From NCBI GenBank assembly GCA_038128225.1, contig JAYPJF010000002.1, forward strand, positions 39,451-103,450: a stretch of 64,000 nt of DNA, written 5' to 3'. The notes beneath the pieces were generated by a model. The model saw only the letters and a list, made by a program, of their open reading frames with translations, ran no database searches and was not told where the DNA came from. Shown piece after piece: positions 21,150-48,572 of this stretch (the stretch's first letter is position 1; each line of letters opens with the position of its first letter). The stretch is from a bacterium (GTDB taxonomy: Bacteria; Patescibacteriota; Minisyncoccia; Phycocordibacterales; UBA2100). The position numbers and the translations under genes are program-made.

Positions 21150-21178
21150 AGGCCGGCTTTTGCCGGCCTCAGTTTTTT
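21150..21178 (+). terminator. Rho-independent terminator
   Basis: AGGCCGGC-TTTT-GCCGGCCT followed by CAGTTTTTT. It overlaps the listed start of the xfp ORF, which supports a later xfp start. Confidence 0.5.
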
Positions 21179-21213
21179 ACACAGCGGTAGTTGTAATGCG
21201 GTACAATAAATAC

Positions 21214-23568: not shown

Positions 23569-24683
23569 TACTTAATCCAGGGAGCGCCTCACATAAATTT
23601 GCGCTCTATCGAGGCTCCAGCTGCTTGTTGTCTGTGCATTACGAACGTACGGAACATGGATTTGCGCGCACGATACACGGTGCGCTGCCTGAGGCAATCA
23701 CCGAGGATGTTTTTTTGCACGCGCGGCAGGACATGATGAATTATCTCGAAGAGAGAGGTTTTTCGTGTGACATATATGTAGTGCGCGTTGTGGCGCCGGG
23801 CACGTACTTTACCGAACACCACCTTGTCGACGATTATTTTATCGAAAAACTCTCACAGGTTGCGCAGTATGACCCTGCACACACAGAGCCTACTCTGGCA
23901 CTTGTGCGCACGTTGCAGACCGAGTCTCCGCAGATTCCCATAGTTGCGGTTTCTGATAGCGCATTTCACACGTCGTTGCCAGAGTACGCACGGCGGATTC
24001 CGCTGCCGGAGTCACTCGTGGCAGAGTATGACATGGCACGATTTGGATATCATGGCATTGCGCTTTCGGCGCTTGCGGAAGATCCGGAACTTCCTTCGCG
24101 TGCAGTGGTGTGCCATTTAGGAAGCGGCTCAAGTGTCACAGGACTCAAGGATGGAAAAAGTATTGAAACTTCGATGGGGTACTCTCCTCTTGAAGGAGTT
24201 CCGATGAGCTCGCGCAGTGGCTCGGTGGACCCCGCGGTTATAGCCCGCCTGTCTCACCACATGACGCCAGAGGAGTTGATCGCACTCATGTATCAGAAAA
24301 GTGGTTTTCAAGCGTTGTGCGGTACTGATGATATGAGAGTAATGCTTCAGGCAGAAGCGACTAATTCGAGCGCGGCGCTTGCGATCGACATGTTCGTACG
24401 TCGTGTCGCGCAGTATGTTGGGGCGTACGCGATGATGCTCGGGGGGATCGATGCGATAGTATTTTCAGGGACGATTGGCGAACGCTCAGCGCCTATTCGC
24501 AGCAAAGTGTGTGCGTTACTTGCGCCATTAGGGGTTGTGCTTGACGCGACTAAAAATGAAAAAGCACAACCGCCTACGGAGGTCGCACATACAGATTCGC
24601 GTGTGCGCATACTAGTTCGTCACGCTGACGAAACAAGGGCAGCGGCACGCATTGCAGCACATACGGCACAACGTCTGGACTAG
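23547..24683 (+). CDS. ackA: Acetate kinase
   Basis: IIVLNPGSASHKFALY opening, CHLGSGSS, and length typical for the ASKHA fold. Confidence 0.9.
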   Translation: MAMETIIVLNPGSASHKFALYRGSSCLLSVHYERTEHGFARTIHGALPEAITEDVFLHARQDMMNYLEERGFSCDIYVVRVVAPGTYFTEHHLVDDYFIEKLSQVAQYDPAHTEPTLALVRTLQTESPQIPIVAVSDSAFHTSLPEYARRIPLPESLVAEYDMARFGYHGIALSALAEDPELPSRAVVCHLGSGSSVTGLKDGKSIETSMGYSPLEGVPMSSRSGSVDPAVIARLSHHMTPEELIALMYQKSGFQALCGTDDMRVMLQAEATNSSAALAIDMFVRRVAQYVGAYAMMLGGIDAIVFSGTIGERSAPIRSKVCALLAPLGVVLDATKNEKAQPPTEVAHTDSRVRILVRHADETRAAARIAAHTAQRLD

Positions 24684-32221: not shown

Positions 32222-32611
32222 ATGTGGCACTGGGTACAGTCATTCGTTTGGATATTTATTTTCGTGATGGTTTTTGGTGTCTTTGTGCTGTGGGGGCCTG
32301 CGCTAGGGCCGTTTCTATCTCTTCACACCGCGCCGTATACGCATGATGTATATGGAGTGTACTTAGAAAGTGGTCACGTGTTCTATGGAGAAATCAGATC
32401 AGTAGGATGGCACTCATTAGTGCTCGAAAATGTCCACTCGTTCCAGAATGTTACCGTGGGCGAAACTTCGACAAGTAATTTCCAGGCACAAAAAGATAAT
32501 CCGCTCACGCGGCCTGAAAACTGGTTGGTGATCGAACGAGACGCGATTCTTTTTTACGAGAAACTCACTCCTGCTGCAAAAATAATGTCGCTTATTCGTG
32601 GGGAATCATGA
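32222..32611 (+). CDS. Hypothetical membrane-anchored protein (129 aa)
   Basis: N-terminal TM helix. 4-nt overlap with the next gene. Confidence 0.4.
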   Translation: MWHWVQSFVWIFIFVMVFGVFVLWGPALGPFLSLHTAPYTHDVYGVYLESGHVFYGEIRSVGWHSLVLENVHSFQNVTVGETSTSNFQAQKDNPLTRPENWLVIERDAILFYEKLTPAAKIMSLIRGES

Positions 32612-34218
32612 ACTATGTAGTCGGTTTTATACTCGCAGGGTGCGTAGTGCCAACGATTGTGTTTGGATTCACCGCAACATCAACAAATTTTCACGTAAAT
32701 CAGGCAATTGTTTCGATCGGCGGCGGAAACCCCACAAGCTCAGTAAGTACATCGACCAACTTCCAGCTTTTTGGCGCTGGCGGGCAAACAGGCACGGGGA
32801 CGTCAACAATCGGTTCGTCATTTACGTTGTACGGTGGCTTTCTGCGCTCGATGTTCAAAAGTGTTCGTCCAACGTATACGCTCGAGCATTTTCATTGGCG
32901 CAATGATGATGGCACGGAAACATCAGCGACCTCGGGAACGTTGGGTGTGCAAGATACGGCAACGTCGTCGGTGCCAAAATCGGCAGCAAAACGATTGCGC
33001 ATTGCAGTTTCAAACGAAGGTGGGACTCAGGCAAACTACAGTGCTACCCAGTTTCGACTTGAGTACGGCCTTAAATCAACAACGTGTGGAGCGATAAGCT
33101 CGTGGAGTGATGTTGGTGCCGGTGCAGGGGATTGGGATATGTCAGATTCGAGCAATGTAACCAATGGAGGAAATACAACCAATATCGCGCTAGGTAGTGG
33201 AGGCGTCGGTGACGAGAACAAATACTTTATTGGAGATGGAGGTGTTCGCGATACCGCAAGCGAAACGAGCGCACAATTTGTTGAGAGTCACTCGTTTTAT
33301 GAAATCGAATATTCCATTCAGGCGCTCGCTGCTGCAACCGACAGTGGTACATATTGTTTTCGAGTGACCGCATCGGGTACCGATACGCTCTTTGTGTATG
33401 ACGTATACCCTGAAGCAACTCTTGCGGCAGGAGCGGGAACGCGGCCGATTGCTTCTGCGGTTTCGATTGACTCCGGTGCTGCCGCGGTGACACTCACCGA
33501 AAACACGATAAAAAACGTATCGTGCGTAGGCACGGTAACTGATACTGACGAATTTGCTGACATCACTTCGGTAACTGCAGATTTGTATCGAACTTCGGTG
33601 GGAGTCGGCGGGGGAGAGGATGACAATAACTACTACCAACTCGCAGGAGATGCGGAATGTGTTCCTTCAGGGGGCTCTGGAAACTCTGAAACATATACGT
33701 GTACATTTGCCGTGCAATATTTTGCCGACCCGACCGATACAGGTTCTCCAAATGCGAGTGACACATGGACGTGCACGATGACTCCTTCTGACGGCGTGGG
33801 AGCAGGAACTGCCGCGTCAGACACAATCGAAATGAATTCTCTCATGGCGCTCACGGTGACTGCGACGATTGCGTACGGAAGCGTGAATGCAAATGCCGAC
33901 ACGGGGAGTGTGAACCAAACGACAACGGTCACTAATACCGGCAATCGCGACATGGATCCAGAACTTTCAGGCGTCACCATGGCGGACGGAGGGAACTCCA
34001 TCGCCGTTGGTCAACAAAAGTACGCGGACGCTGCATTTACCTACACATCCGGAGGTGTCGCGCTTTCTACTACGCCGACAGCGATCAATGTAACTTTGCC
34101 TCAGCGGACCGGAGGAGCAATTAGCGACGATGTACTCTGGGGTCTTGGAGTTCCTAACGGTACACCGATCGGAAGTTACACAGGAACAAATACATTTACC
34201 GCAGTAGCGGGGTTGTAG
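32608..34218 (+). CDS. Thr/Gly-rich secreted surface protein, paralogue A (536 aa)
   Basis: N-terminal hydrophobic anchor. Shares with the 34273 gene the domain signatures TLTENT..., (I)A(Y/F)G(S/T)V(N/S)ANADTG..NQ..T.TNTGN, and a C-terminal (W)G(L/I)..PNG...G.YTG.NTFTAVA(G/D) motif. Confidence 0.55.
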   Translation: MNYVVGFILAGCVVPTIVFGFTATSTNFHVNQAIVSIGGGNPTSSVSTSTNFQLFGAGGQTGTGTSTIGSSFTLYGGFLRSMFKSVRPTYTLEHFHWRNDDGTETSATSGTLGVQDTATSSVPKSAAKRLRIAVSNEGGTQANYSATQFRLEYGLKSTTCGAISSWSDVGAGAGDWDMSDSSNVTNGGNTTNIALGSGGVGDENKYFIGDGGVRDTASETSAQFVESHSFYEIEYSIQALAAATDSGTYCFRVTASGTDTLFVYDVYPEATLAAGAGTRPIASAVSIDSGAAAVTLTENTIKNVSCVGTVTDTDEFADITSVTADLYRTSVGVGGGEDDNNYYQLAGDAECVPSGGSGNSETYTCTFAVQYFADPTDTGSPNASDTWTCTMTPSDGVGAGTAASDTIEMNSLMALTVTATIAYGSVNANADTGSVNQTTTVTNTGNRDMDPELSGVTMADGGNSIAVGQQKYADAAFTYTSGGVALSTTPTAINVTLPQRTGGAISDDVLWGLGVPNGTPIGSYTGTNTFTAVAGL

Positions 34219-34272
34219 GTGTGGATAACTACAGAGAGCGGCGACGCTTCACTATATACTTGATGAGTAACT

Positions 34273-35244
34273 ATGATGCGCCGTGCACGATCGCTCAACT
34301 TCAACGCGTGGACAATTTCCGCGGTAGTTTTTGCAGCAGGCGTTTTGGTCTCTGCAACTATCGTGCTCGCGGATACTGCATCAACTTCGGTTACGGTAGG
34401 TAACTCATCTCCTACCGTGAGTGCTGTGTCGATGAATGGCGGCACAAACATTACTCTTACCGAAAACACGTTTGTGAATGCCACAACAACGTTTACGGTA
34501 ACTGATGGGAACGGATGCAGTACGATTTCAAGTGTCTCGGCGCAGTTTGCCTTTGCTTCAACGAGCGCGGCGCTCTACGGAGCCAATTGTTCCTACAATG
34601 CGCAAGTGTGTTATTTCCCAACACTCTGTGCAGCAACAACGACAGGAAATACATGCACTGGTGGTTCTGATACTTCAGTACAGTATGATTGTGGCTACAA
34701 AATTTGGTATCCTGCGCGACCCACCGACGGCTCCTCCCCGGGTCTTTCGAGTGCGCAGTGGTACGTCTCAGCAACCGCGACGGACGCAAGCGCAGCAACA
34801 GGAAATGCAACAAATACCGGCGAAACCATTGAGGTTGTTACTTTGAATGCACTTAATGTGAGCGGATCCATTGGCTTTGGAACCGTCTCCGCAAACGCAG
34901 ACACTGGCGGCACGAATCAAAGCGTCACCCACACCAATACTGGAAATACCGCGATTGATAATCAGGTGTCTGGTGACGTAATGTGTACTGACTACTCGAC
35001 GTGTGTTGGTGGTGTACTGCAGCCATCGCAGCAGAAGTTTGGATTGAGTGACGTAACGTACGCTTCACTCACGAGTACACTCGCTGCAACCACATCGCCT
35101 GCATCAATTGAATTTGATCTGGCGACTTCCTCAGCAACCACCACTGCAATCACTGATTTGTCATATTGGGGTATTGCGATTCCAAACGGTCAGACCACTG
35201 GCGCGTATACGGGACAAAACACTTTTACCGCGGTTGCTGACTAG
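34273..35244 (+). CDS. Thr/Gly-rich secreted surface protein, paralogue B (323 aa)
   Basis: Signal peptide, the same motif set as paralogue A, and the C-terminal ...IPNGQTTGAYTGQNTFTAVAD. Confidence 0.55.
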   Translation: MMRRARSLNFNAWTISAVVFAAGVLVSATIVLADTASTSVTVGNSSPTVSAVSMNGGTNITLTENTFVNATTTFTVTDGNGCSTISSVSAQFAFASTSAALYGANCSYNAQVCYFPTLCAATTTGNTCTGGSDTSVQYDCGYKIWYPARPTDGSSPGLSSAQWYVSATATDASAATGNATNTGETIEVVTLNALNVSGSIGFGTVSANADTGGTNQSVTHTNTGNTAIDNQVSGDVMCTDYSTCVGGVLQPSQQKFGLSDVTYASLTSTLAATTSPASIEFDLATSSATTTAITDLSYWGIAIPNGQTTGAYTGQNTFTAVAD

Positions 35245-35276
35245 GTTTCCTGTCGCGCTCGTGTACACTTAAGCGC

Positions 35277-36167
35277 ATGTATCGAGGCTTACTTTTTTCA
35301 CTGGTACTGGTAGCCTTAACTGTCCCTTGGATTGCGGATGCCGGATTTGGTGTTTCGCCCCCACTTGTTAAAGAAGACCGCCTTGTTCCAGGTATTACGC
35401 TTGAGCGAATTGTGTACTTGGTCCAGGGTAGCCCTGAGCGCGATCTGCAAGTTGAGTTGTTTGTTGAATCTGATATCAGCGACTGGATACGCTTTCCGCA
35501 AGGTAACCCGATCACGATTCCAAAAGGTGTGCAACAATTTCCTCTTGCTGTGCAGGTGAGTGTGCCCGCTGACGCGCAGCTCGGTGTATATAAAGGCTCT
35601 ATTCGCATCACCACGGTACCTGAAAAAGCTGACGAGGCAGGTGAAGTAGCGATCGCGATTGGCGGATTGGTTGAACTGGATCTCACGGTTGGTAATGACG
35701 TTATTGTCGATTTGAAAGTGCGTACGATTAAGATTTTGAATGTGAAGGAAGGCGATGACGCTGAAGCAGATGTCACTATCGTTAATAGCGGCAACGCACC
35801 GGCTGCACCAGACGCGGCGACGTTTGAATTATTCAACAAATTTGGTGAGCTACGACTAGCGTATGGTGAGACGCAAGAGTTCAAGCTTGTGCCCGCGTTT
35901 GGCGAGCTCGTTGAACATCTTTCGTTTCCTATCGATATTCATCTTGCTCCTGGAGAATACTGGGGCCACGTTAAAGTGTACAAAGATAAGGAGTTAATTG
36001 GAGAGTTGCGTACGGTGTTTAATGTTACGGAAAAAACCTTTTTGGAAAAATACCAGTGGTATCTCGTGGGTGCATTGGGGCTTCTTGCATCCATACTCCT
36101 CCTTGTATTTGTTGTCATGATGCGGCGCCAGAACAGACCCGTATACTACGAGCAACCTATACGATGA
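35277..36167 (+). CDS. Secreted protein with a C-terminal TM anchor (architecture reminiscent of DUF916/DUF3324-type cell-surface proteins, low confidence)
   Basis: Signal peptide, a GFGVSPPLV... beta-rich ectodomain, then a C-terminal TM helix (WYLVGALGLLASILLLVFVVMM) plus a basic tail. Confidence 0.45.
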   Translation: MYRGLLFSLVLVALTVPWIADAGFGVSPPLVKEDRLVPGITLERIVYLVQGSPERDLQVELFVESDISDWIRFPQGNPITIPKGVQQFPLAVQVSVPADAQLGVYKGSIRITTVPEKADEAGEVAIAIGGLVELDLTVGNDVIVDLKVRTIKILNVKEGDDAEADVTIVNSGNAPAAPDAATFELFNKFGELRLAYGETQEFKLVPAFGELVEHLSFPIDIHLAPGEYWGHVKVYKDKELIGELRTVFNVTEKTFLEKYQWYLVGALGLLASILLLVFVVMMRRQNRPVYYEQPIR

Positions 36168-36170
36168 AAC

Positions 36171-37265
36171 ATGCGCGTTGCAGCATTGCTACTTATTGTG
36201 TGCTTCATAAGCACGTGGGTGTATGCGGACACGGCGTCGATAACGGTAACGGTGATTATCGCACAGTGTACTGACGGGTCTGATAATGATGGCGATACGC
36301 TGATTGACTACCCTTCTGACCCAGGGTGTTCTTCGACTGGGGATAATGATGAATCAAACGCTGCCCCGCACTGCTCGGACACTCTGGATAATGATTCTGA
36401 CGGTCTTACTGATTACCCCGCAGATCCTGGGTGCTATAAAACCAGTTATATTTCCGAGGCAATGGCTGCGGGGGGCGGCGGTGGTGGCGGGGGGGGTGGA
36501 GGAGGCGGAGGTGGGGTGGTATCGAGTGGGTCAGCGGTGACTCTAACCGGGTACGCCTATCCAAATAGCGTTGTGCACGTATACCAAGACGGACGACGGG
36601 TATTAGAAGTGTATGCGGGTTCCGATGCGCGCTTTACTGCAACGATACAAAATCTTTCTGCGGGTATTTATACGTTTGGTGTAAGTGCGCAAGATGAAGA
36701 CGGAAGACGTTCGGCGCTGTTTAATATTCCACTCTCCGTCTCTGTTTCATCACAAACAAGTATTGGCGGCACCGTACTCGCACCAACGATAACATCGGAT
36801 TACGAAAAAATTCGTCACGGTGACACTTTGACGCTTTTTGGAGCAACGATTCCGAACGCGCAAGTGACTGTTGAAGTCAATTCTGAGACACAGCTCTTTG
36901 TTCGCGCTGAATCAAATGCTGATGGCGCGTATCTCGCGAGATTTGATACGTCACAGATCGAGCGCGGAGATCACGTCGCGCGCGCGAAAGCCGAGTCTGA
37001 AACTCTTTCGATTCCGTATGGGACGGCGATAGGGTTTGTTGTTGGCGATGTAAACGTGCCGCGTGTTGAGGCGTCTGGTTCGGTGCGTAAAGGCGATCTC
37101 ACAAGTGATGGAAAAGTTGATATTCGAGATTTTTCAGTTGCTGCGTACTGGTATCGACGAACACTTACCGCCGAGTTTGCGCTCATCGAGTCTGAAAGGC
37201 TCAATGGCGATGGAAAAATTGATCTGAAAGATTTTAGTATCATGGCGTATTATTGGACCTCATAA
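36171..37265 (+). CDS. Secreted dockerin-domain protein with two Cys/Asp-rich Ca-binding-like repeats and a Gly15 linker
   Basis: Signal peptide. Two copies of C(T/S)DxxDNDxDxLxDYPxDPGC (thrombospondin-type-3-like DxDxDG). GGGGGGGGGGGGGGG linker. Beta-rich domain. C-terminal duplicated dockerin-like segments GDLTSDGKVDIRDFSVAAYWY / LNGDGKIDLKDFSIMAYYW. Confidence 0.55.
   Translation: MRVAALLLIVCFISTWVYADTASITVTVIIAQCTDGSDNDGDTLIDYPSDPGCSSTGDNDESNAAPHCSDTLDNDSDGLTDYPADPGCYKTSYISEAMAAGGGGGGGGGGGGGGGVVSSGSAVTLTGYAYPNSVVHVYQDGRRVLEVYAGSDARFTATIQNLSAGIYTFGVSAQDEDGRRSALFNIPLSVSVSSQTSIGGTVLAPTITSDYEKIRHGDTLTLFGATIPNAQVTVEVNSETQLFVRAESNADGAYLARFDTSQIERGDHVARAKAESETLSIPYGTAIGFVVGDVNVPRVEASGSVRKGDLTSDGKVDIRDFSVAAYWYRRTLTAEFALIESERLNGDGKIDLKDFSIMAYYWTS
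36468..36525 (+). repeat. Poly-glycine codon tract containing G6 and G8 homopolymers
   Basis: GCGGGGGGCGGCGGTGGTGGCGGGGGGGGTGGAGGAGGCGGAGGTGGGG, with G8 at 36489-36496. Confidence 0.8.
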
Positions 37266-38113
37266 CTATGCGTATCTGTTTTCGACCATTTCTCTTCGCC
37301 GCGTTAATAGCTGTGTTTGTTATAGTCCCAGACCAGGCGATTGCCGCATCAGTTGAAGCACGTGTCGCTCGAGACGGGGCCCTGTGGAGAGTCACATATA
37401 TTTTGCACGCAGAGGGGGCTGCGTTAAACGTACTTGCGGGGACGTTTCCTTTTTCTTCTGATCTAAAAGTAGAGCGCATAGAAACTGGACGTAGTATCAT
37501 CCAGCTTTGGGTTACTTCTCCCAAAAATGACCGTGCTGGCGTAACGTTTGAAGGAGTTGTTCCGGGCGGATTTTTGGGGAGCGCAATCCCGTCCCGAGGA
37601 TTGACTGGCTCGGGAGAAATAATGACTGCCGTCTTTTCATCAGAAAAGGATCATGGGATATTGGCGGGTGGTTCTATTAGAGGGTATCTTCACGATGGCA
37701 GTGGGACGGAGGTTTCGCTTCCGTTTGCTGAAGTCACGTTTGATGCACGAACTCCTGAAGAAAACGTTTCTGATGACCGTACACCTCCCGCACGTATTTT
37801 TTTTGAAATTCTAAACGAGCCTTCAATGCTCGTGCTTGACGCTCAAGATAAAGAAACAGGCATCGATCGCTACGAGGTGAAGATAGGGCGCACTGAATGG
37901 AAGACTGTCGAGCCGCCGGTGCCGCTTTCGCAGGCGGAGCGAGATGCGCGCATTGCCGTGCGTGCATTTGATAACGCCGGAAATTTTCGTGAAGCCCTTG
38001 TTCAGGAATCATCTCCGAACGAAACATACAAGCGCATCTTAGGTATTATTGGCATACTCGTGATCGTCCTCGTACTGGCGGCGGTATATATGCGCGTGAT
38101 GCACAGGGAGTAG
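37253..38113 (+). CDS. Hypothetical secreted protein with a C-terminal TM anchor (286 aa)
   Basis: Signal peptide (FLFAALIAVFVIVPDQAIA), a beta-rich ectodomain, and a C-terminal TM helix (ILGIIGILVIVLVLAAVYM). Confidence 0.45.
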   Translation: MDLITMRICFRPFLFAALIAVFVIVPDQAIAASVEARVARDGALWRVTYILHAEGAALNVLAGTFPFSSDLKVERIETGRSIIQLWVTSPKNDRAGVTFEGVVPGGFLGSAIPSRGLTGSGEIMTAVFSSEKDHGILAGGSIRGYLHDGSGTEVSLPFAEVTFDARTPEENVSDDRTPPARIFFEILNEPSMLVLDAQDKETGIDRYEVKIGRTEWKTVEPPVPLSQAERDARIAVRAFDNAGNFREALVQESSPNETYKRILGIIGILVIVLVLAAVYMRVMHRE

Positions 38114-38137
38114 TTTCAGAACTTCTCTATACCGTCT

Positions 38138-39115
38138 ATGATACGTTTTATGAAGCACGCATTATTCTCTGGGATGCTCGGTGCGCTCTACTTCTGTGTA
38201 GGGGCGCTACCGTTAGTTGCAGATGCTGCAACACTCCAATTTGGTGGCGCAACGCAGGGGACTGTTGGAAGCACGCTCACGATTCCGATTACCGTGAGCG
38301 CAGCACAAGGAGAATCGGTTAACGCGGTTTCTGCAACAGTGCGTTTTCCCGCTGCGCTACTTGAGGCGACCTCAATGTCTTCTTCGGGGAGCATCGTAAA
38401 TTTTTGGGTGCAGCAACCAAGTTTTTCAGCCTCAGCGGGGACAGCAGAACTTGAGGGGGTAATACTCAATCCAGGTTTTAGCTCTCAGCAAGGAATAGTT
38501 GCAACACTGACGTTTCGAGTTCGCGCTGCTGGAGCAGCAACACTCTCATTTTCTTCGGCTTCAGTTTTAGCGAATGATGGGGCGGGGAGTAACATACTCA
38601 CCGCGTCTCCGTCAAAAACACTCACCCTTACTGCTCCTGAGGTAAAGAAAGAAGAGCAAAAGAAGATCGAGCCGACGACAGGAAGCGCTGAAGAGAAAAA
38701 ACCAATCGAGGTTGTGCCGCCACCACTACGTGAAGCAACAAGCGCTCTTGAGATTTCGCCGATACAGGACGATGTCCCCGCGACGTCGACTTACCAGACG
38801 CATCCGGCACCGTCGTTCGGGTATGCACTTCCTTTAGCAACGGGGCTCGCGATCCTTGGCTGGCTCATAATACTTGCACGGTTCCTTTTCGATCGGAGAG
38901 CTAAGGTGCCGCCTTTGAAACGTATCGCTGCAGCCGACCGCGCACTCCACCAAGCGCTTAAAGACCTACGATCTGACCTCTCGCACGAACTGAAACATTT
39001 GCGCGCAAAAGAGGGCGCAGGCACGCTAACGGTCGAGGAACGGCATATTTTGAAGCGTTTTGCAGGAGCGATGAACGAATTTGATAAAATTGACTCCGAC
39101 TCGGAGCGAGCGTAA
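38138..39115 (+). CDS. Membrane-anchored cohesin-like domain protein with a cytoplasmic coiled-coil tail
   Basis: Signal peptide. ATLQFGGATQGTVGSTLTIPITVSAAQGESVNAVSATVRFPAALLEATS...GIVATLTFRVRAAGAATLSFSSASVLANDGAG matches the cohesin beta-sandwich pattern (GxT(V/L)xIPVx(V/F)S...VNAxxxx(V/I)xF(D/P)..LE...). Then a Pro/Glu linker, a TM helix (LATGLAILGWLIILARFLF), and a basic/coiled tail. Confidence 0.55.
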   Translation: MIRFMKHALFSGMLGALYFCVGALPLVADAATLQFGGATQGTVGSTLTIPITVSAAQGESVNAVSATVRFPAALLEATSMSSSGSIVNFWVQQPSFSASAGTAELEGVILNPGFSSQQGIVATLTFRVRAAGAATLSFSSASVLANDGAGSNILTASPSKTLTLTAPEVKKEEQKKIEPTTGSAEEKKPIEVVPPPLREATSALEISPIQDDVPATSTYQTHPAPSFGYALPLATGLAILGWLIILARFLFDRRAKVPPLKRIAAADRALHQALKDLRSDLSHELKHLRAKEGAGTLTVEERHILKRFAGAMNEFDKIDSDSERA

Positions 39116-39150
39116 GAAGACCACTTGCTTTTGGAAGAAGAGCGAGTAGA

Positions 39151-39528
39151 GTGCCGTACATGAAATACAAATACACAGCCATCGTCGGGGCGATTCTTAT
39201 TCTTGCGGGATTGTTTGTATGGGGTTCTTTTGGGCGTGCTGCACAACCACAAGCAGAAGAGCCAGTGCGCCACCTGGTCGAGGTATCAGGTAACATTGTT
39301 CATGGTGAGCCGCAGAGAACTAAGCATGGGTGGCGTTTTAAAGAAAATGGCAACGTATTTGAGCTCGCTTTTTCTTCTCAAAGCATATGTGCAGGAAAAA
39401 CATCTTCTGGTATTTGTAACCCCACAAAGTTTATTGATGGACGTGCGGCGGATCTAGAAGGAGAACTTGTTGATGGGCTTTTGCGTGTGTACAAGCTTAC
39501 ATTTACTGAACCAGTAACGACTCAATAA
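39151..39528 (+). CDS. Hypothetical membrane-anchored small protein (125 aa)
   Basis: N-terminal TM helix. Two Cys residues in the ectodomain. Confidence 0.4.
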   Translation: MPYMKYKYTAIVGAILILAGLFVWGSFGRAAQPQAEEPVRHLVEVSGNIVHGEPQRTKHGWRFKENGNVFELAFSSQSICAGKTSSGICNPTKFIDGRAADLEGELVDGLLRVYKLTFTEPVTTQ

Positions 39529-39529
39529 T

Positions 39530-39970
39530 ATGCGCCTCCGCGTCGTTTTGAGCATTCTCGCGGCACTACTCATATGTACGGGAGTGTACTTGTTGCTTCT
39601 GAAACCTGATCACGATGGTGTGCAAAAGACCTCTTCTGTCATCATGCCGCCGACGGTTACGTGGCTTTTTGCAGAAAGTGCTGCCGCTGGTCCGGAAACT
39701 CCACCCAAAACGAAAGTGATTATCCGAACAGAACGAGGCCTTAAAGATGTAGGCATGTATGACGGAACATGTTTTGATGTTGCAGGCTCGAACTGGGAAT
39801 TAGTCAGTGGAGAAATATCCGCCGTGATTTGTTATTGGGCAGGAGGCGGCACGGAAATTGGTGTGTTTGAAGAAAATGGAGAGTATGTGGTGAAAGAAGG
39901 GGTTATTGAGGAGCCCACCGAAGAAACCGACGGCATTCGAGGTGTATTTAAGACACTCTTTGTGCTTTAA
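39530..39970 (+). CDS. Hypothetical membrane-anchored small protein (146 aa)
   Basis: N-terminal TM helix and an acidic C-terminus. Confidence 0.4.
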   Translation: MRLRVVLSILAALLICTGVYLLLLKPDHDGVQKTSSVIMPPTVTWLFAESAAAGPETPPKTKVIIRTERGLKDVGMYDGTCFDVAGSNWELVSGEISAVICYWAGGGTEIGVFEENGEYVVKEGVIEEPTEETDGIRGVFKTLFVL

Positions 39971-39997
39971 AGGGAATGGGTAATTGAACTGAAAACA

Positions 39998-40024
39998 AAA
40001 ACACCCAGCAGCGCTGGGTGTTTT
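39998..40024. terminator. Bidirectional hairpin terminator between the surface operon (+) and the LTD gene (-)
   Basis: AAAACACCCAGC-AGC-GCTGGGTGTTTT followed by T. Confidence 0.5.
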
Positions 40025-40037
40025 TGGTACGAGTCGT

Positions 40038-41717
40038 TTATAAACCTGGTGTCGGTGTTTCTCGGTCTACCCAATCACTTGCGGTATTGGTGTCAGTAGT
40101 TACTGACGATCGAGCAATCGAGTGACCGTCTGCGACTGACGCGGTTGATGGATCAAACGCTGTTGTATTTGACCCCCACGAAACTGCGTCAACCACAGTG
40201 TCTCCGCTTTTTAGAAACACTCCGTCGCTCGAATTACTCAAACCGTTGCCGATTGAGCCGCCCAGAACAACTACCGGTACACCCCCGGGGAAACTCCAGA
40301 AGTTCGCGGTTGTGCTGGTGCCGGTGACAATGAGGTATCCTCCTGCTGCGATCGTTGTTGTTGCAGGGAAGGCATCAGTTGAAGTAGCGTCCATGATAGA
40401 CCATCCGCTTATGTCGACAGGGGAAGCTGTGGGGTTATAAAGTTCCACCCACTCATTTCCGGGGTCGTCACCGTGAGCCGTGTCAGGATTATAGTACGCC
40501 TCACTGATAATGACATGAGCAACTTGCGGCGCGGGTTCAAGTACCGTCACCACGACGCTGTCCGCCGCTTCACCGCCCAATCCAGAGCACGTGAGCGTGT
40601 ATGTGCTTGTAGTCGCTGGACTTGCTGCAATCGAACTGTTGAGCGGAACTGCGCCACTCCATGCTCCTGAGCCTGTGCAGGTTGTTGCCTGTGTTGACGC
40701 CCACGAAAGCGTCGTAGTTCCGCCACGGGTAATAGTTGTTGGGTTGGCCGTCAAATCCACCGTCGGCATTGGGTGTGGACTTACGGTCACGGTTTCCGAT
40801 TCAGATACTGAACCTCCCGCGCCCGTACAGGTGAGCGTGTACGTTGTTGTCGTTGCAGGGGTAACTACCATGGAGCCTGAGGTGTCTTTTGACCCCGACC
40901 AGCCATCTGAGGCGGTGCACGCGGTGGTGTTTGTTGAACTCCAGCTGATAAGCGAGCTTGTGCCTACAAGGATACTCGCCGGGTTAACGGTAAGCGAAAG
41001 AGTTGGTGTGGGCGCTGGTGTAACCGTAACCGTTGTTGTGCCCGAAACCGATCCTCCGTTTCCTGTGCACGTAAGAACATACTGCGCGGTTGTGGTAGGA
41101 GAGACGCCCTCGCTGCCTGAAGTTGTTTTTAACCCACTCCAATTGCCTGATGCGGTGCAGCCGTTTGCGTTTGCAGCAGTCCATGAGAGTGTCGCGCTGT
41201 TGCCGGACACTATCGTTGTTGGGCTAGCGCCGAAGGTAAGAGTTGGCTGCGAGGGCGGCGCCGCGTTTACGGTAACCGTTGCGGAATCGCTTGTGGATCC
41301 AGTCGCATTACTGCAGGTGAGTGTGTATGTAGTCGTTGTTGCTGGGGAGACACTCAGAGAGCCATTTTTTTCTTGAGCGCCACTCCAACCACCGGAAGCC
41401 GTACACGTTTCGGCGTTTGCACTTGACCAGGTAAGTAACGATGAGCTGCCCACAGTAATCGACTCTGGGTTACTTACGTGAGATACGGTAGGTACAGGCA
41501 GCGGCGGAGTCTCACGACACATCCATAACTGCACGTGACTCGGGAACCGTTGTTTCAGCGGTTTAAGACCTTCGCACACTTGATCGTAAATATGGTTACG
41601 CAGATCATCGTATCGAAGTGGCGAATGATACGCGGAGCCAGCCTCAAGGACACCGACTCCTGCCGATAAAAACACAAGAGTTAATAAACCAAGCCAAGAA
41701 GCACGAAGTAATGCCAT
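40038..41717 (-). CDS. Secreted protein with 4 tandem Ig-like repeats and a C-terminal lamin-tail domain (LTD)
   Basis: Signal peptide. Four repeats of ~90 aa (T(L/V)T.NP..I..G.S..L.W.S.NA..CTASG.WSG.K..SGS..VSPATTTTYTLTC.G.GGS.S.S.TVTV). C-terminal HVIISEAYYNPDTAHGDDPGNEWVELYNPTASPVDISGW...SNSSDGVFLKSGDTVVDAVSWG is the LTD signature. Confidence 0.7.
   Translation of the reverse strand: MALLRASWLGLLTLVFLSAGVGVLEAGSAYHSPLRYDDLRNHIYDQVCEGLKPLKQRFPSHVQLWMCRETPPLPVPTVSHVSNPESITVGSSSLLTWSSANAETCTASGGWSGAQEKNGSLSVSPATTTTYTLTCSNATGSTSDSATVTVNAAPPSQPTLTFGASPTTIVSGNSATLSWTAANANGCTASGNWSGLKTTSGSEGVSPTTTAQYVLTCTGNGGSVSGTTTVTVTPAPTPTLSLTVNPASILVGTSSLISWSSTNTTACTASDGWSGSKDTSGSMVVTPATTTTYTLTCTGAGGSVSESETVTVSPHPMPTVDLTANPTTITRGGTTTLSWASTQATTCTGSGAWSGAVPLNSSIAASPATTSTYTLTCSGLGGEAADSVVVTVLEPAPQVAHVIISEAYYNPDTAHGDDPGNEWVELYNPTASPVDISGWSIMDATSTDAFPATTTIAAGGYLIVTGTSTTANFWSFPGGVPVVVLGGSIGNGLSNSSDGVFLKSGDTVVDAVSWGSNTTAFDPSTASVADGHSIARSSVTTDTNTASDWVDRETPTPGL
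40400..41495 (-). repeat. Tandem ~270-bp coding repeats (4 copies) encoding the Ig-like modules
   Basis: Visible protein-level periodicity, and recurrent DNA blocks (e.g. GTGAGCGTGTA...GTTGTCGTTGCAGG, ACGGTAACCGTTG...). Confidence 0.65.
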
Positions 41718-42769: not shown

Positions 42770-42833
42770 TGCATCGAACGCTTTGGGAACAACACGGCCC
42801 TCTGCGGCCGTGTTGTGCTATGCTTTGAATACC

Positions 42834-43904
42834 ATGTCAATATTTCGGATGCCGAAAGCACCTTCGTGGTTTGAGCCATACGTGCGCTACATCCCAACTG
42901 TTGCGCTTGTTTGGGGTATTATTTGGGACTCGCTCACACTGAGCCGCCCGGATCGCATTTTTGATAATCTTGTCGTACTTGCATACCTCACGCTTTCCGC
43001 GGGGATAATAGTACTCCTCAACATGGAACATAAGCGGCGCAGCATAGAACCGCTACTTCTTTTAGGCGTTCTTCAGTTTAGTTTTGGCAACCTGACAAGT
43101 GCACTCCTAATTTTGTACACAAAAAGTGGCACTATCATCGGAGGGGCGCTTTTTCTCGGGTTACTTGCACTTCTTTTGGTGAGTAACGAAGTGTTGCGTG
43201 AACGATATCAGCGCCTTCAGGTTCATATTGCGGTATGGTACCTTCTTGTACTTGCATACGCCGTTCTTATTGTGCCGGTACTCGTGGGCTCGATCGAATG
43301 GTATATGTTTTTTATGAGTCTTGGGGTTGCCCTCGGTGCCGCCATCGGACTTTTAAGTGTTGTGCACGCGGTAAGCCCGACAACAGTATGGAATCGTGTG
43401 CGGAATGTCGGTCCTTCAATAACTGCAGTTTCAATTGCGGTTATCGGACTCTACGCATTTAACTGGATTCCACCGGTCCCTCTCGCGCTTAAACATGTTG
43501 GTGTATATCACGCGGTGACTCGCACGGCAGAGGGATATGAGCTTACATACGAGGCGCCTTCGCGGCTCGCTTTTTGGCGATCCACAAGCGCAACGTATAA
43601 CCATCAAGGACAGCCAGCTTTTTGCGTCAGTGCCATATTTGCTCCAAAAAATCTGTCGCTTACGATCTACCATCGGTGGGAAAAGTGGAGTGAGGAACGA
43701 GAAGATTGGGACACCGTAAGCCTGATTCCATTTTCTATGAACGGGGGACGTGATGAGGGTTACCGTGGCTATTCTGAAACGAACCGTCTTACTCCAGGGT
43801 TGTGGCGCTGCGATGTTGAAACAGAACGGGGAGCCCTTATCGGCCGGGTAAAATTTTTTGTTCAGGAGGGTACTCCGACAGAATTATTTACCCGAGCGCT
43901 ATAA
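42834..43904 (+). CDS. Polytopic membrane protein with a C-terminal soluble domain (DUF2914-like, low confidence); start uncertain
   Basis: 5-6 TM helices, then a ...TIYHRWEKWSEE...TPGLWRCDVETERGALIGRVKFFV beta-rich domain. Confidence 0.4.
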   Translation: MSIFRMPKAPSWFEPYVRYIPTVALVWGIIWDSLTLSRPDRIFDNLVVLAYLTLSAGIIVLLNMEHKRRSIEPLLLLGVLQFSFGNLTSALLILYTKSGTIIGGALFLGLLALLLVSNEVLRERYQRLQVHIAVWYLLVLAYAVLIVPVLVGSIEWYMFFMSLGVALGAAIGLLSVVHAVSPTTVWNRVRNVGPSITAVSIAVIGLYAFNWIPPVPLALKHVGVYHAVTRTAEGYELTYEAPSRLAFWRSTSATYNHQGQPAFCVSAIFAPKNLSLTIYHRWEKWSEEREDWDTVSLIPFSMNGGRDEGYRGYSETNRLTPGLWRCDVETERGALIGRVKFFVQEGTPTELFTRAL

Positions 43905-45598: not shown

Positions 45599-46435
45599 AT
45601 GCGTATCGTAATCGGCGTTCTCTGTATAGGGTGTATCGTTTTCTCGTTTTTTGCCGTTGAGTCGTTGCGACGTGATCTTGAGTGGGAAACCACAATGGTG
45701 CGTACACAACACGCAGAGGAGCCGAGTGTCGTTACTGGAGTTACTACAGAAACAGACGCACGGATCCCAAAAAGTCTCGGTGTTCAAGAAGTGATCGTTG
45801 ACGAGGAGCATAAAACTTCAGAAAACACATCGCAGACACCCATAATGCAACAAGCCGAAAAGGGCGAATCATTTGCGAGCGCGTGGAAACATGCAAAAGC
45901 GACCATGTTTTGGGTTGGCGAGGATGCAACTTCTGACAATGGGTTTATTCACAATAGCGCGAGTGCGTGGGATGAAATCTGGGAGACGCATTTTGGGGGC
46001 GTTGATGACCCAGAGACCCGTTGTGGGTATCATCCGTGCGGGTTCACGCCAAAACAAAACCCTTTCTACGTTGCGCTTCCTTATAATGATTTTGATGATG
46101 AGGGGAATCGGAAGGCAAACGCGTCACGCGTGCCGTGGTTTGATGATAGGTCATCGGGATCATTGCTTGAAAATCGATGGGTTGAGGTACGCCGAAATGG
46201 CGTCTCGTGTTTTGGTCAGTGGCAGGATGTTGGACCGTTTGAGGAAGACGACGTTGAGTATGTGTTCGGTGATGCGGCTGCGCCGAAAAATACCACCATT
46301 GTTGGGGCGGGCATCGATCTCTCCCCGGCGCTTTCAGATTGCCTAAGCCTTGGCGGTTTGGGCGAGGTGGAATGGAGGCATGTGGCCACAGAGCGTGTAG
46401 TTCGTGGACCTTGGACCGACATCGTCACCCATTAA
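45599..46435 (+). CDS. Hypothetical secreted protein (278 aa from the internal ATG)
   Basis: The start at 45599 gives the signal/TM MRIVIGVLCIGCIVFSFFAV. Divergent from the ECF sigma gene, so possibly part of its regulon. Confidence 0.45.
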   Translation: MRIVIGVLCIGCIVFSFFAVESLRRDLEWETTMVRTQHAEEPSVVTGVTTETDARIPKSLGVQEVIVDEEHKTSENTSQTPIMQQAEKGESFASAWKHAKATMFWVGEDATSDNGFIHNSASAWDEIWETHFGGVDDPETRCGYHPCGFTPKQNPFYVALPYNDFDDEGNRKANASRVPWFDDRSSGSLLENRWVEVRRNGVSCFGQWQDVGPFEEDDVEYVFGDAAAPKNTTIVGAGIDLSPALSDCLSLGGLGEVEWRHVATERVVRGPWTDIVTH

Positions 46436-48572
46436 GGGTAAATGGTGCGATGCGGAGTCGCATGAGCGCGACATGGCAATCACCGTGGCGCTTTTGTACA
46501 CCCCAATGGAAGAGCGAGCCAGTGAGTGCAAGCCACACACTTTTGAGTACGATCGCGGCGATAAGGTATCGATAAAAAAGACGCTGTAACAAGAGTGTTG
46601 TGAACAACAGTCGGTAATGAGGGTGTTTTTCATCGCGTAGCGCAACTGCAGCAATGAGCATGTCGAAAAGTGTATAAGCCAGAAATGGGATGAGTATCAG
46701 CGATATATAAGACTGAGTAACAATTCCAATAATGAGCGCGATATCCAAAAGCGGGAGACACATCGGAAGGAGGACATTGAAGGTTATGGTGTATGGAAGT
46801 ACTAGAAAACCTAGCCACGGCCGAGAAGTCGAGGCAAACCAAGGGAGATACTTCCATACACACTGCACGGTTCCATACATCCAGCGCATCCGCTGCTTGA
46901 AAAATGCGCGAACCGTATGGGGCGTTTCAGTAAACGCATACGCGCGCGCATCATAACGAACCGAATATCCTTCCGAAAGCAGCTTGAATGTAAGATCCTG
47001 GTCTTCCACCACCGTGTCGGTCGAGTATCCTCCAAGACGCTCGATTACGTCCTTGCGCCATGCGCCGAGGGCTCCGGGCACGATATGAACTGCGTTTCCA
47101 AGTGCAAAAACCGTTTTATCAATGTTCTGTCCTTGTGTGTACTCAAGATACTGGAACGCACTCAAAAGGGTTTTGATTGCAGCAGGGTAGATTTTTCCGG
47201 ATACGGCGCCAACATGAGGGTCGCTGAAATGCGTCACCAGGTGTGTGATTGCGTCAGGGGCAACGATTGTATCGGCATCAATGCAGACGACGATGTTGTG
47301 TTGCGCATGGGGAAGTGCAAATGAAAGCGCTTTTGCTTTCGCCCCCTCGTTTTCTTTCTGAAGTAGTCGCAAGTGCGAGCCGATGAATGGAATTAGTGCA
47401 AGTACCCGAGCGCTGGTTTCATCGGTCGAACCGTCGTCGACGACAATTATTTCGTCGCCAGGGCGGATCGCTTTCGCTGCCGAGTGAATGGTCGCCTCGA
47501 TGTTGAGTGCCTCGTTGAAGGCTGGGATGAGCACTGACACCGGCTCGGTATGTGCTTCAAGGGGGGCGCGGCGAGCTCGTGCCCATGGCACATAGAGAAA
47601 ACGTAGAAGGAGAACCGTCCACATACGGGTAAGTCCGAGAATCACCAAAATACCGATAATACCCCAAAGAAGGGATGATCCTTGTGTGTATGCAACAGCG
47701 GCCCCAGCAAGAAGCGCATCCCGCCCAATGCCAAGTGGTGCGGCTGGCATGACATCGGCTTTAGTTAGACCGAGTTGCTGAGAAATTGGCACGAAGGTGT
47801 ATCCTTCAGCTTTCATTGTTGCAATGAATCCAGGGAGCGCCTCAAGTGTCGTTCCGCTTCCAGCCTCTTCGTGAAGAAGCACTACGTTATGTTTGCGATT
47901 TGATTGATTGTACACACCTTCTATAAGGCGTCGCTCGAGGCGCGCTTTCCCAGTTTTCGGGTCCGACTCCAACCAATCAAGTGAATCGATTGTGGTACCA
48001 ATAACAAGAAAACCCGCTTTCTCTGCCCAGCGGAACGCCTCTGCGTTTTGGGTGCTGCCATCGAGTTCCCATGATTCAAAGTCAATCAAAAAAGGAGGGC
48101 GGTATAGATATGATGTATGCCCAGTAATATTCCTCAATACTCGGTCTGCGGCACTTAATTCCGCACGGAGCCGGCGTTCATTGGCATGCACCTCACGAGA
48201 GTGGGTAAATGTGTGGTTCCCGATTTCAAAAAGAGGCGAAGTAGCAACACGGCGAACGATATCCGGATGCTTCACCATATACTCTCCTATGAAGAAAAAA
48301 GTCGCAGGCACGTGTTCGCGTTCGAGAAGGTCGAGAAGCTGTGGCGTATACACTTCGTGTGGGCCGTCATCAAAAGATAACGAGATCCATTTATCGGAGT
48401 TTTCCGCAGTAGTATTTGCGGTGAGTTGTGGCGCAACATGAGTATCGCGCACCACCGCTTCCATTGAATAGGGAATTGAAACTAAAAACAGTATGGTGAT
48501 TCCGATGACCGCACACGCACTAAGGCCGTACACAAACCATTTTCTCCATCCGTGACGGTCATAAAAAATCAT
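46425..48572 (-). CDS. Fusion protein: polysaccharide deacetylase (NodB/CE4) plus processive family-2 glycosyltransferase (PgaB/PgaC- or IcaB/IcaA-like)
   Basis: N-terminal TM. The CE4 motifs ISLSFDDGP and FFFIGEYMVKHPDIVRRV...GNHTFTH. TM segments. The GT2 motifs VLIPAFNEA, VVDDGSTDETS, and QxxRW (QRMRWMYG). A C-terminal TM bundle. Confidence 0.8.
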   Translation of the reverse strand: MIFYDRHGWRKWFVYGLSACAVIGITILFLVSIPYSMEAVVRDTHVAPQLTANTTAENSDKWISLSFDDGPHEVYTPQLLDLLEREHVPATFFFIGEYMVKHPDIVRRVATSPLFEIGNHTFTHSREVHANERRLRAELSAADRVLRNITGHTSYLYRPPFLIDFESWELDGSTQNAEAFRWAEKAGFLVIGTTIDSLDWLESDPKTGKARLERRLIEGVYNQSNRKHNVVLLHEEAGSGTTLEALPGFIATMKAEGYTFVPISQQLGLTKADVMPAAPLGIGRDALLAGAAVAYTQGSSLLWGIIGILVILGLTRMWTVLLLRFLYVPWARARRAPLEAHTEPVSVLIPAFNEALNIEATIHSAAKAIRPGDEIIVVDDGSTDETSARVLALIPFIGSHLRLLQKENEGAKAKALSFALPHAQHNIVVCIDADTIVAPDAITHLVTHFSDPHVGAVSGKIYPAAIKTLLSAFQYLEYTQGQNIDKTVFALGNAVHIVPGALGAWRKDVIERLGGYSTDTVVEDQDLTFKLLSEGYSVRYDARAYAFTETPHTVRAFFKQRMRWMYGTVQCVWKYLPWFASTSRPWLGFLVLPYTITFNVLLPMCLPLLDIALIIGIVTQSYISLILIPFLAYTLFDMLIAAVALRDEKHPHYRLLFTTLLLQRLFYRYLIAAIVLKSVWLALTGSLFHWGVQKRHGDCHVALMRLRIAPFTLNG

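Follow-up and report, generated by a model that had tools for sequence, protein, structure and literature searches.

Dockerin and cohesin-family proteins encoded by a three-gene cassette conserved among Patescibacteria

A 64,000-nucleotide stretch of a Patescibacteriota genome (lineage UBA2100; contig JAYPJF010000002.1 of assembly GCA_038128225.1, positions 39,451 to 103,450; referred to as the window) carries three adjacent genes on one strand, here called A, B and C, which in this order encode an immunoglobulin (Ig)-Ig-dockerin protein, a short cohesin-transmembrane protein and a longer cohesin-transmembrane protein with a cytoplasmic tail. These genes form a cassette that is conserved across a large share of Patescibacteria, and their domains point to what is probably a non-cellulosomal cohesin-dockerin system tethering protein A to the membrane. 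A preliminary description of this DNA had noted a cohesin and a dockerin module encoded two genes apart, and the two peptide strings it quoted for them were found exactly where it had placed them. While both modules were confirmed, the picture of a pair proved incomplete, as the intervening gene B encodes a cohesin paralog and the set is a triad. A scan of the window with family hidden Markov models (HMMs) correspondingly revealed 1 dockerin and 2 cohesin-like domains.

Domain composition of proteins A, B and C

In protein A, a signal peptide precedes two acidic disulfide repeats, which a stretch of 15 glycines connects to two Ig domains (Pfam Big_6, E 7.9e-9); the protein ends in a dockerin. 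Its hydropathy profile contained an N-terminal hydrophobic segment only, without a transmembrane anchor. Its C-terminus reads GDLTSDGKVDIRDFSVAAYWY...LNGDGKIDLKDFSIMAYYWTS (open reading frame (ORF) 36171-37265). Dockerins of type I are built of two tandem 12-residue EF-hand-like Ca2+ loops (with ligands at positions 1, 3, 5, 9 and 12), each followed by a helix. The same two-segment loop-helix pattern was present in the tail of A, the segments being DLTSDGKVDIRD-FSVAAYWY and (R)LNGDGKIDLKD-FSIMAYYW. Specifically, loop 1 runs D-L-T-S-D-G-K-V-D-I-R-D and loop 2 R-L-N-G-D-G-K-I-D-L-K-D, with FS(V/I)(A/M)AY(W/Y)(Y/W) following each of them.

A search for homologs of A yielded 277 proteins, 31 of which were aligned. 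The last 60 residues were the best conserved part of this alignment, with a consensus of GDLNxDGRVNLVDFSIAAYWYKR...LNGDGKIDLxDFSIMAYYWTG, in which the helix residues F, S, W, F, S, I, A and W were invariant across the family. Between the two segments the identity is ~70% (DFSIAAYWY compared with DFSIMAYYW). Where the window protein has a Thr at position 3 of its first loop, the family has an Asn. Pfam Dockerin_1 (PF00404) was matched by 29 of the 31 homologs at E<=0.01 (best 6.8e-9), and a profile built from the last 62 residues of the A family matched solved dockerins across both repeats (2y3n_B with E 4.9e-7; also 5nrm_B, 2mte and 1daq). Because of these two results, we accept the tail of A as a dockerin on family-level evidence, even though the window protein itself stayed below the Pfam cut-off, and the duplicated dockerin-type end proposed for it in the preliminary description thus stands. 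An HMM of this dockerin family had its sole match in the window at the end of A (E 1.1e-32), and the Ca-loop motif occurred once in the six frames of all 64 kb.

The N-terminal head of A is variable, unlike the nearly invariant Ig-Ig-dockerin base. In the family alignment the head differs between lineages, with FN3 or other modules taking its place, while a Gly-rich run is conserved at the same position across the A family. Against a 96%-identical sister strain (L085), A differed only in its signal peptide, in the last part of the second acidic repeat, in one Ig residue and in the length of the Gly run (15 in the window versus 13 in the sister strain), with most of the differences falling into the head; the run is thus a length-variable linker. 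The acidic repeats scored 37.1 bits against the NCBIfam model acid_disulf_rpt (NF033662), under its cut-off of 41; they are probably Ca-binding.

Protein C was found to comprise a signal peptide, a cohesin domain (residues ~30-166), a disordered Pro/Glu/Lys linker (178-227), a transmembrane helix (230-256) and a helical tail (261-324). After the signal peptide it starts with TLQFGGATQGTVGSTLTIPITVSAAQGESVNAVSATVRFP... (ORF 38138-39115). The protein matched Pfam Cohesin (PF00963) with 31.7 bits, over the cut-off of 24.1 (E 2e-7), and a phmmer search matched it to a C. cellulolyticum cohesin (2vn5_A, E 3.5e-4). With 22 sequences as input, AlphaFold2 predicted a model that contains a nine-stranded sandwich with predicted local distance difference test (pLDDT) values of 87-97 over residues ~30-170. 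When this model was compared with the PDB by Foldseek, the top 39 matches were all cohesins (5nrm_A with E 2.2e-9; 2vo8 with a TM-score of 0.80), on which the domain superposes as a nine-stranded beta-sandwich (jelly-roll). The cohesin domain that the preliminary description had read into this protein is therefore supported by both its Pfam score and its fold. The membrane part of that description was upheld as well, in that the model places the transmembrane helix and the cytoplasmic tail at the residues given above and a hydropathy scan agrees. Moreover, the tail was modelled as a helical hairpin and aligned to the C-family profile (E 1.2e-8). The window C represents a short form, without the second beta domain or middle domains of most C orthologs, and 23 of 71 C orthologs matched Pfam Cohesin (E<=0.01).

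Protein B starts with a signal peptide and a cohesin-fold domain (residues ~28-159), followed by a second beta domain (178-245), a transmembrane helix (252-280) and a very short tail. Its gene begins at TTG 37253 in the ORF list; independent gene calls use ATG 37268, which gives 281 amino acids (aa). In phmmer searches of related loci, B and C cross-matched, both pointing to the same ORFs downstream. When profiles from alignments of 70 B-type and 71 C-type proteins were compared with hhalign, they aligned with a probability of 100% and E 1.6e-48, spanning the cohesin and the second beta domain. The B profile also matched R. flavefaciens cohesins (5aoz, E 1.6e-4). By these profile comparisons, gene B is a cohesin paralog.

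Conservation of the cassette across Patescibacteria

The arrangement in the window proved not to be an isolated case. In a pattern scan that took a single genome for each species, more than 599 stretches matched, and at least 528 of them were confirmed as relatives of A. These relatives belonged mostly to Patescibacteria (Paceibacterota, Uhr-, Falkow-, Wolfe-, Taylor-, Magasanik-, Zambryski-, Campbell-, Vogel-, Nomura- and Veblenbacteria, and Microsyncoccus archaeolyticus), and the few that are labelled as other phyla probably result from mis-binning. A HMMER search of 1.84 billion representative proteins returned 1,407 clusters at E<=1e-30, including some giant Ig-repeat proteins that were matched via their Ig domains. 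Scanning IMG/VR with the family-specific dockerin gave no phage relatives, and in the literature on cohesins and dockerins in Patescibacteria (also known as CPR, the candidate phyla radiation), Parcubacteria and epibionts we found no description of the A-B-C cassette.

Synteny was examined in 80 fetched loci plus 4 others, of which 80 were non-duplicate. In 78 of these 80, a gene of the cohesin family comes after A on its strand, typically one of the B type and then one of the C type. Of the two exceptions, one is a contig that ends before C (L079) and the other is ambiguous, the region after A being a single 866-aa cohesin-family ORF (L016). The median gap amounted to 5.5 nt between A and B and to –26 nt between B and C, and the corresponding junctions in the window are 2 nt and 24 nt, with 3 nt separating the stop of the 35277 gene from the start of A. 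Exactly one dockerin-bearing ORF was present in each locus (84/84). Some loci were observed to carry further cohesin-family genes: a third paralog of ~420-440 aa after C in nine of them (L028, L032, L035, L038, L044, L051, L061, L066 and L077), and an extra cohesin protein between A and B in two (L071 and L073).

The genes located 5′ of A followed two recurring arrangements, namely either two genes of a family referred to as K3 and one of a family referred to as K4 (as in the window), or a giant protein of ~2000 aa together with small transmembrane proteins related to that of gene 32222. Because these upstream genes alternate while A-B-C stays the same, A-B-C appears as the constant core of the loci.

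Predicted topology was complementary within the cassette. An N-terminal hydrophobic segment was detected in 24 of 31 A-family, 55 of 70 B-family and 57 of 71 C-family proteins. A later transmembrane helix was rare in A (1/31) and usual in B (64/70) and C (68/71), where it is C-terminal and followed by a median of 9 and 83.5 residues, respectively.

Membrane tethering and competing explanations

In the tethering that we favour, A would be exported through its signal peptide and would present, from N- to C-terminus, its variable head, the Gly linker, two Ig-like stalk domains and the dockerin. Both B and C would be type I membrane proteins with an extracellular cohesin at the N-terminus and a transmembrane helix at the C-terminus, B having almost no cytoplasmic part and C a conserved, predicted helical cytoplasmic tail of ~70-85 residues. 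We infer that the dockerin of A would dock non-covalently, and presumably in a Ca2+-dependent manner, onto the cohesin of B, of C or of both, and that this docking would keep A, together with its head, on the cell surface. The head might then serve as an adhesin (towards a host or a substrate) or as a structural surface element.

This tethering, which the preliminary description had raised as a possibility, is strongly though indirectly supported by the location of membrane-anchored cohesin genes directly 3′ of the dockerin gene in nearly all loci, by the single dockerin per locus, and by the absence of an anchor from the dockerin proteins next to its presence at the C-terminus of the cohesin proteins. 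It is further supported by the way in which conservation concentrates on the strands of the canonical dockerin-binding sheet (strands 3, 5, 6 and 8). Column information on strands 3/5/6/8 versus 1/2/4/7/9 was 2.97 versus 2.49 bits for the C cohesin (p 0.006) and 2.43 versus 1.50 bits for the B cohesin (p 0.0002), in a comparison that takes strand boundaries and numbering from predicted models and pools surface- and core-facing residues. The near-invariant C residues N62, A63, W90, P94, E106, G107 and L144-G148 lie on these same four strands. On the dockerin side, the invariant helix residues of the family speak for tethering too, as does a head that varies on a nearly invariant base. In the modelled structures, such conservation is consistent with a conserved binding sheet.

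Besides the pooling in the strand comparison, several observations weigh against the tethering of A by B or C. Of the two Pfam models that the preliminary description had proposed as a check, Cohesin recovered C and Dockerin_1 matched the A family at large, but the window dockerin itself scored only 19.6 bits against PF00404, under the cut-off of 22.9 (E 1e-3). Position 1 of its second loop is an Arg instead of the usual Asp, a position that varies in the family. Protein B did not match Pfam Cohesin, and only 9 of 70 B orthologs did (E<=0.01). Mutual information with average product correction revealed no covariation signal in 77 pairs of dockerin and C cohesin (maximum 0.350 versus 0.357 after shuffling) or in 73 pairs of dockerin and B cohesin (0.306 versus 0.363); the sequences were too few, and the candidate interface residues are nearly invariant. 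Simple tethering, finally, leaves the upkeep of two cohesin paralogs unexplained.

The lack of covariation would also fit an explanation in which the domains are genuine but the dockerin of A binds elsewhere, to a host ligand, a glycan or an upstream protein, with A, B, C and the upstream secreted proteins being co-expressed parts of a single surface structure and the cohesin folds acting as adhesin or structural modules. Cohesin-like sandwiches do resemble adhesin and carbohydrate-binding module (CBM) folds, and Als adhesins, pilins and CBM2 were among the lower-ranked structure matches; in addition, the triad always lies 3′ of other large secreted proteins (K3/K4 or giant) that might be the true partners. 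Those upstream genes, however, vary between two unrelated architectures whereas A-B-C is constant, both paralogs are biased in conservation towards the canonical binding sheet, and the solved cohesin-dockerin precedents among the structural matches are all protein-protein pairs. With the linkage of dockerin and cohesin in 78/80 loci and one dockerin in 84/84, a cognate pair is the simplest account, and we regard a partner elsewhere as unlikely. Still somewhat less likely, in our judgement, is a three-part complex, in which B and C would form a heterodimer (via the second domain or the transmembrane helices) or serve as alternative receptors through a dual binding mode, so that A would be coupled to the cytoplasmic coiled coil of C across the membrane and not passively anchored. 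Such a complex would accommodate the retention of two cohesin paralogs, sometimes three, in nearly all loci, the similarity of the two dockerin halves, and the conserved C tail with its modelled hairpin. Against it, the second beta domain, common to B and most C orthologs, is missing from the window C, and the binding modes of dockerins in solved complexes use overlapping faces, which would make them alternatives and not simultaneous (see PMC8063739 on dual binding).

By far the least probable is a minimal cellulosome-like or amylosome-like scaffold for polysaccharide degradation. Cellulosomes are typified by cohesin and dockerin modules, and the best sequence and structure matches were cellulosomal. 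Yet A has neither a catalytic domain nor a CBM, every cohesin protein carries one cohesin without any scaffoldin being encoded, and the window, like each related locus, contains a single dockerin. The preliminary description had placed the modules outside any cellulolytic context, and this held: the scanned ORFs of the window were housekeeping genes and glycosyltransferases (TopA, DprA, SerRS, DnaX, phosphoketolase, acetate kinase, TyrRS, UvrA/B and glycosyltransferases are among the neighbours), without a glycoside hydrolase or CBM. The hosts are, moreover, Patescibacteria with reduced genomes. In the absence of enzymes, CBMs and scaffoldin this scaffold was rejected, as was a chance match of the domains, in view of the HMM, profile, fold and synteny evidence.

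Going further than membrane tethering, the triad could be a core, lineage-defining envelope module, in which one invariant dockerin would join the rapidly varying head, and perhaps the upstream giant or K3 proteins, to two membrane cohesins, and the module, with the conserved coiled coil of C, would couple host-cell contact physically, and possibly functionally, to the interior of these episymbiotic bacteria; we offer this only tentatively. As a part of that same proposal, and with as much reserve, the cassette may embody a use of cohesin and dockerin that is unrelated to polysaccharide degradation and has so far been undescribed.

Genomic surroundings, known systems and wider meaning

The ORFs of the window place A, B and C in a tight co-directional run of genes on the plus strand, from 32222 to 39970, and a putative terminator at its end would close both this run and a convergent gene at 40038-41717 (Table 1).

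Table 1. Coordinates in the window of the cassette, its domains and the genes of the same run
Feature	Position	Strand	Evidence
Gene A, dockerin-bearing secreted protein, 364 aa	36171..37265	+	ORF, Pfam, NCBIfam, family alignment, hydropathy
Head of A (N-terminal, variable) with two Cys-bounded acidic repeats at residues 33-53 and 68-88 (C.DG.DNDGD..D.P.DPGC)	36267..36434	+	sequence reading
15-glycine run of A (residues 101-115), linker from head to Ig stalk	36471..36515	+	sequence
Dockerin module of A (residues 305-364), two segments of Ca-loop plus helix	37083..37262	+	PF00404 sub-threshold, family HMM, PDB profile match
Gene B, second cohesin paralog by profile, 281 aa	37268..38113	+	ORF from ATG 37268
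Gene C, cohesin protein, 325 aa	38138..39115	+	Pfam, AlphaFold2, Foldseek, hydropathy
Cohesin domain of C, nine-stranded beta sandwich	38225..38635	+	AlphaFold2, Foldseek, alignment
Upstream genes (32222-32611, 32608-34218, 34273-35244, 35277-36167)	32222..36167	+	co-directional, recur with the triad
Downstream genes of the run	39151-39528, 39530-39970	+	
Strong putative hairpin terminator, 14-bp stem and T-run	39996..40026	.	consensus scan only

The upstream proteins encoded between 32222 and 36167 received no Pfam, NCBIfam or PDB assignment, and they were grouped into families K3 to K6 by BLAST clustering. K3 is the family of the proteins of 32608-34218 and 34273-35244 (both on the plus strand), two paralogous secreted proteins of 536 and 323 aa with a common C-terminal domain that ends in NTFTAVAGL or NTFTAVAD, and the order K3-K3-K4-A-B-C was found in ~30 related loci. 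At 32608-32800 (plus strand), the 536-aa protein carries a repeated N-terminal motif, S.NF.[LV]...GG...S.NF.L...GGF, and the same S.NF motif forms the N-terminal head of many A-family proteins elsewhere (P0046, P0052, P0083, P0086, P0105, P0112, P0127 and P0129). Because this head motif is common to the 536-aa protein and to A-family members, it suggests an exchange of modules between A and upstream proteins.

The gene directly 5′ of A in the window (35277-36167, plus strand) encodes a protein of 296 aa that has a signal peptide, a start reading 'GFGVSPP' and, at the C-terminus, a transmembrane helix with a basic tail; only weak matches were found for it. Members of its family, K4, were counted in 28 loci altogether, and in 16 related loci they lie directly 5′ of A; an iterated profile of the 35277 protein drifted (218 matches in round 3) and was discarded. 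The first gene of the run (32222-32611, plus strand) encodes an N-terminally anchored protein of 129 aa, whose relatives of family K6 (possibly also K5) stand directly 5′ of the dockerin gene in many giant-protein loci; in the window, three K3/K4 genes lie between it and A.

Beyond the run, the convergent gene on the minus strand (40038-41717) encodes a secreted protein of 559 aa that combines four Ig-like, Thr/Ser-rich repeats with a Lamin Tail Domain at its C-terminus (PF00932, E 3e-17). A multi-transmembrane DUF2914 protein is encoded near the cassette at 42783-43904 (plus strand), and likewise in two related loci (L001, at 1748-2866, and L086); it may be a recurrent neighbour, present in 6 loci in the clustering. 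The minus-strand gene at 46425-48572 encodes a protein of 715 aa that fuses a polysaccharide deacetylase domain to a glycosyltransferase of family 2 (chitin-synthase-like), a candidate exopolysaccharide synthase/deacetylase. At 21160-24683 (plus strand), a phosphoketolase (XFP) gene is directly followed by one for acetate kinase, a compact fermentative pair that yields ATP.

The modules of the cassette belong to known cohesin and dockerin families. The closest likeness is to the anchoring scaffoldins OlpA/OlpC and SdbA of C. thermocellum (3ul4, 4dh2; pairs 1ohz, 2vn5, 5nrm), in which a cell-anchored single cohesin meets the two-repeat C-terminal dockerin of a secreted protein, as proposed for A. 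Structures of such cellulosomal anchoring scaffoldins were among the best matches, and the fold is the same. In contrast to these scaffoldins, the patescibacterial cohesin proteins are anchored by a C-terminal transmembrane helix and not by a surface-layer homology (SLH) domain or a sortase signal, C has a conserved cytoplasmic tail, and the cargo is non-enzymatic, with an Ig stalk and a variable head. The patescibacterial set moreover has two cohesin paralogs adjoining one dockerin gene in fixed synteny, lacks a cellulolytic context, and carries in its dockerin helices a near-invariant, lineage-specific DFSI(A/M)AYW where recognition residues usually vary.

Cohesin-dockerin modules outside cellulosomes, of which the A. 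fulgidus and C. perfringens pairs also count among the closest analogies, were surveyed by Peer et al. 2009 (as referred to in PMC10066038). The A. fulgidus cohesin 2xdh, the cohesins of C. perfringens GH84C/GH33 (2w1n, 2jh2, 2vo8, 2ozn) and the R. bromii amylosome link enzymes or toxins to each other, whereas the cassette described here combines a non-catalytic surface protein with two membrane proteins in a fixed set of three genes. Within Patescibacteria, Southlakia epibionticum (Saccharibacteria) has a dockerin-domain envelope protein, SEML1_0315, that was reported to be essential (PMC10633639). SEML1_0315 resembles A in being a dockerin-annotated envelope protein of a Patescibacteria member, and this analogy suggests that dockerins matter for patescibacterial surface biology. 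It does not represent the same cassette: the protein has 927 aa, and its gene is monocistronic and flanked by unrelated genes and a tRNA, without adjacent cohesin genes.

Much of bacterial diversity belongs to Patescibacteria, most of which have yet to be cultivated. To our knowledge, how they build their surface and attach to hosts is largely unknown beyond type IV pili. Being compact, widely conserved and built of well-understood modules, the A-B-C cassette provides a testable hypothesis of a Ca2+-dependent anchor that would display a variable head. If this holds true, cohesin-dockerin biology would extend from the scaffolding of enzymes to the general architecture of the cell envelope, and the cassette would supply a natural cohesin-dockerin pair that is orthogonal and whose recognition helix, DFSI(A/M)AYW, is unusual and highly conserved.

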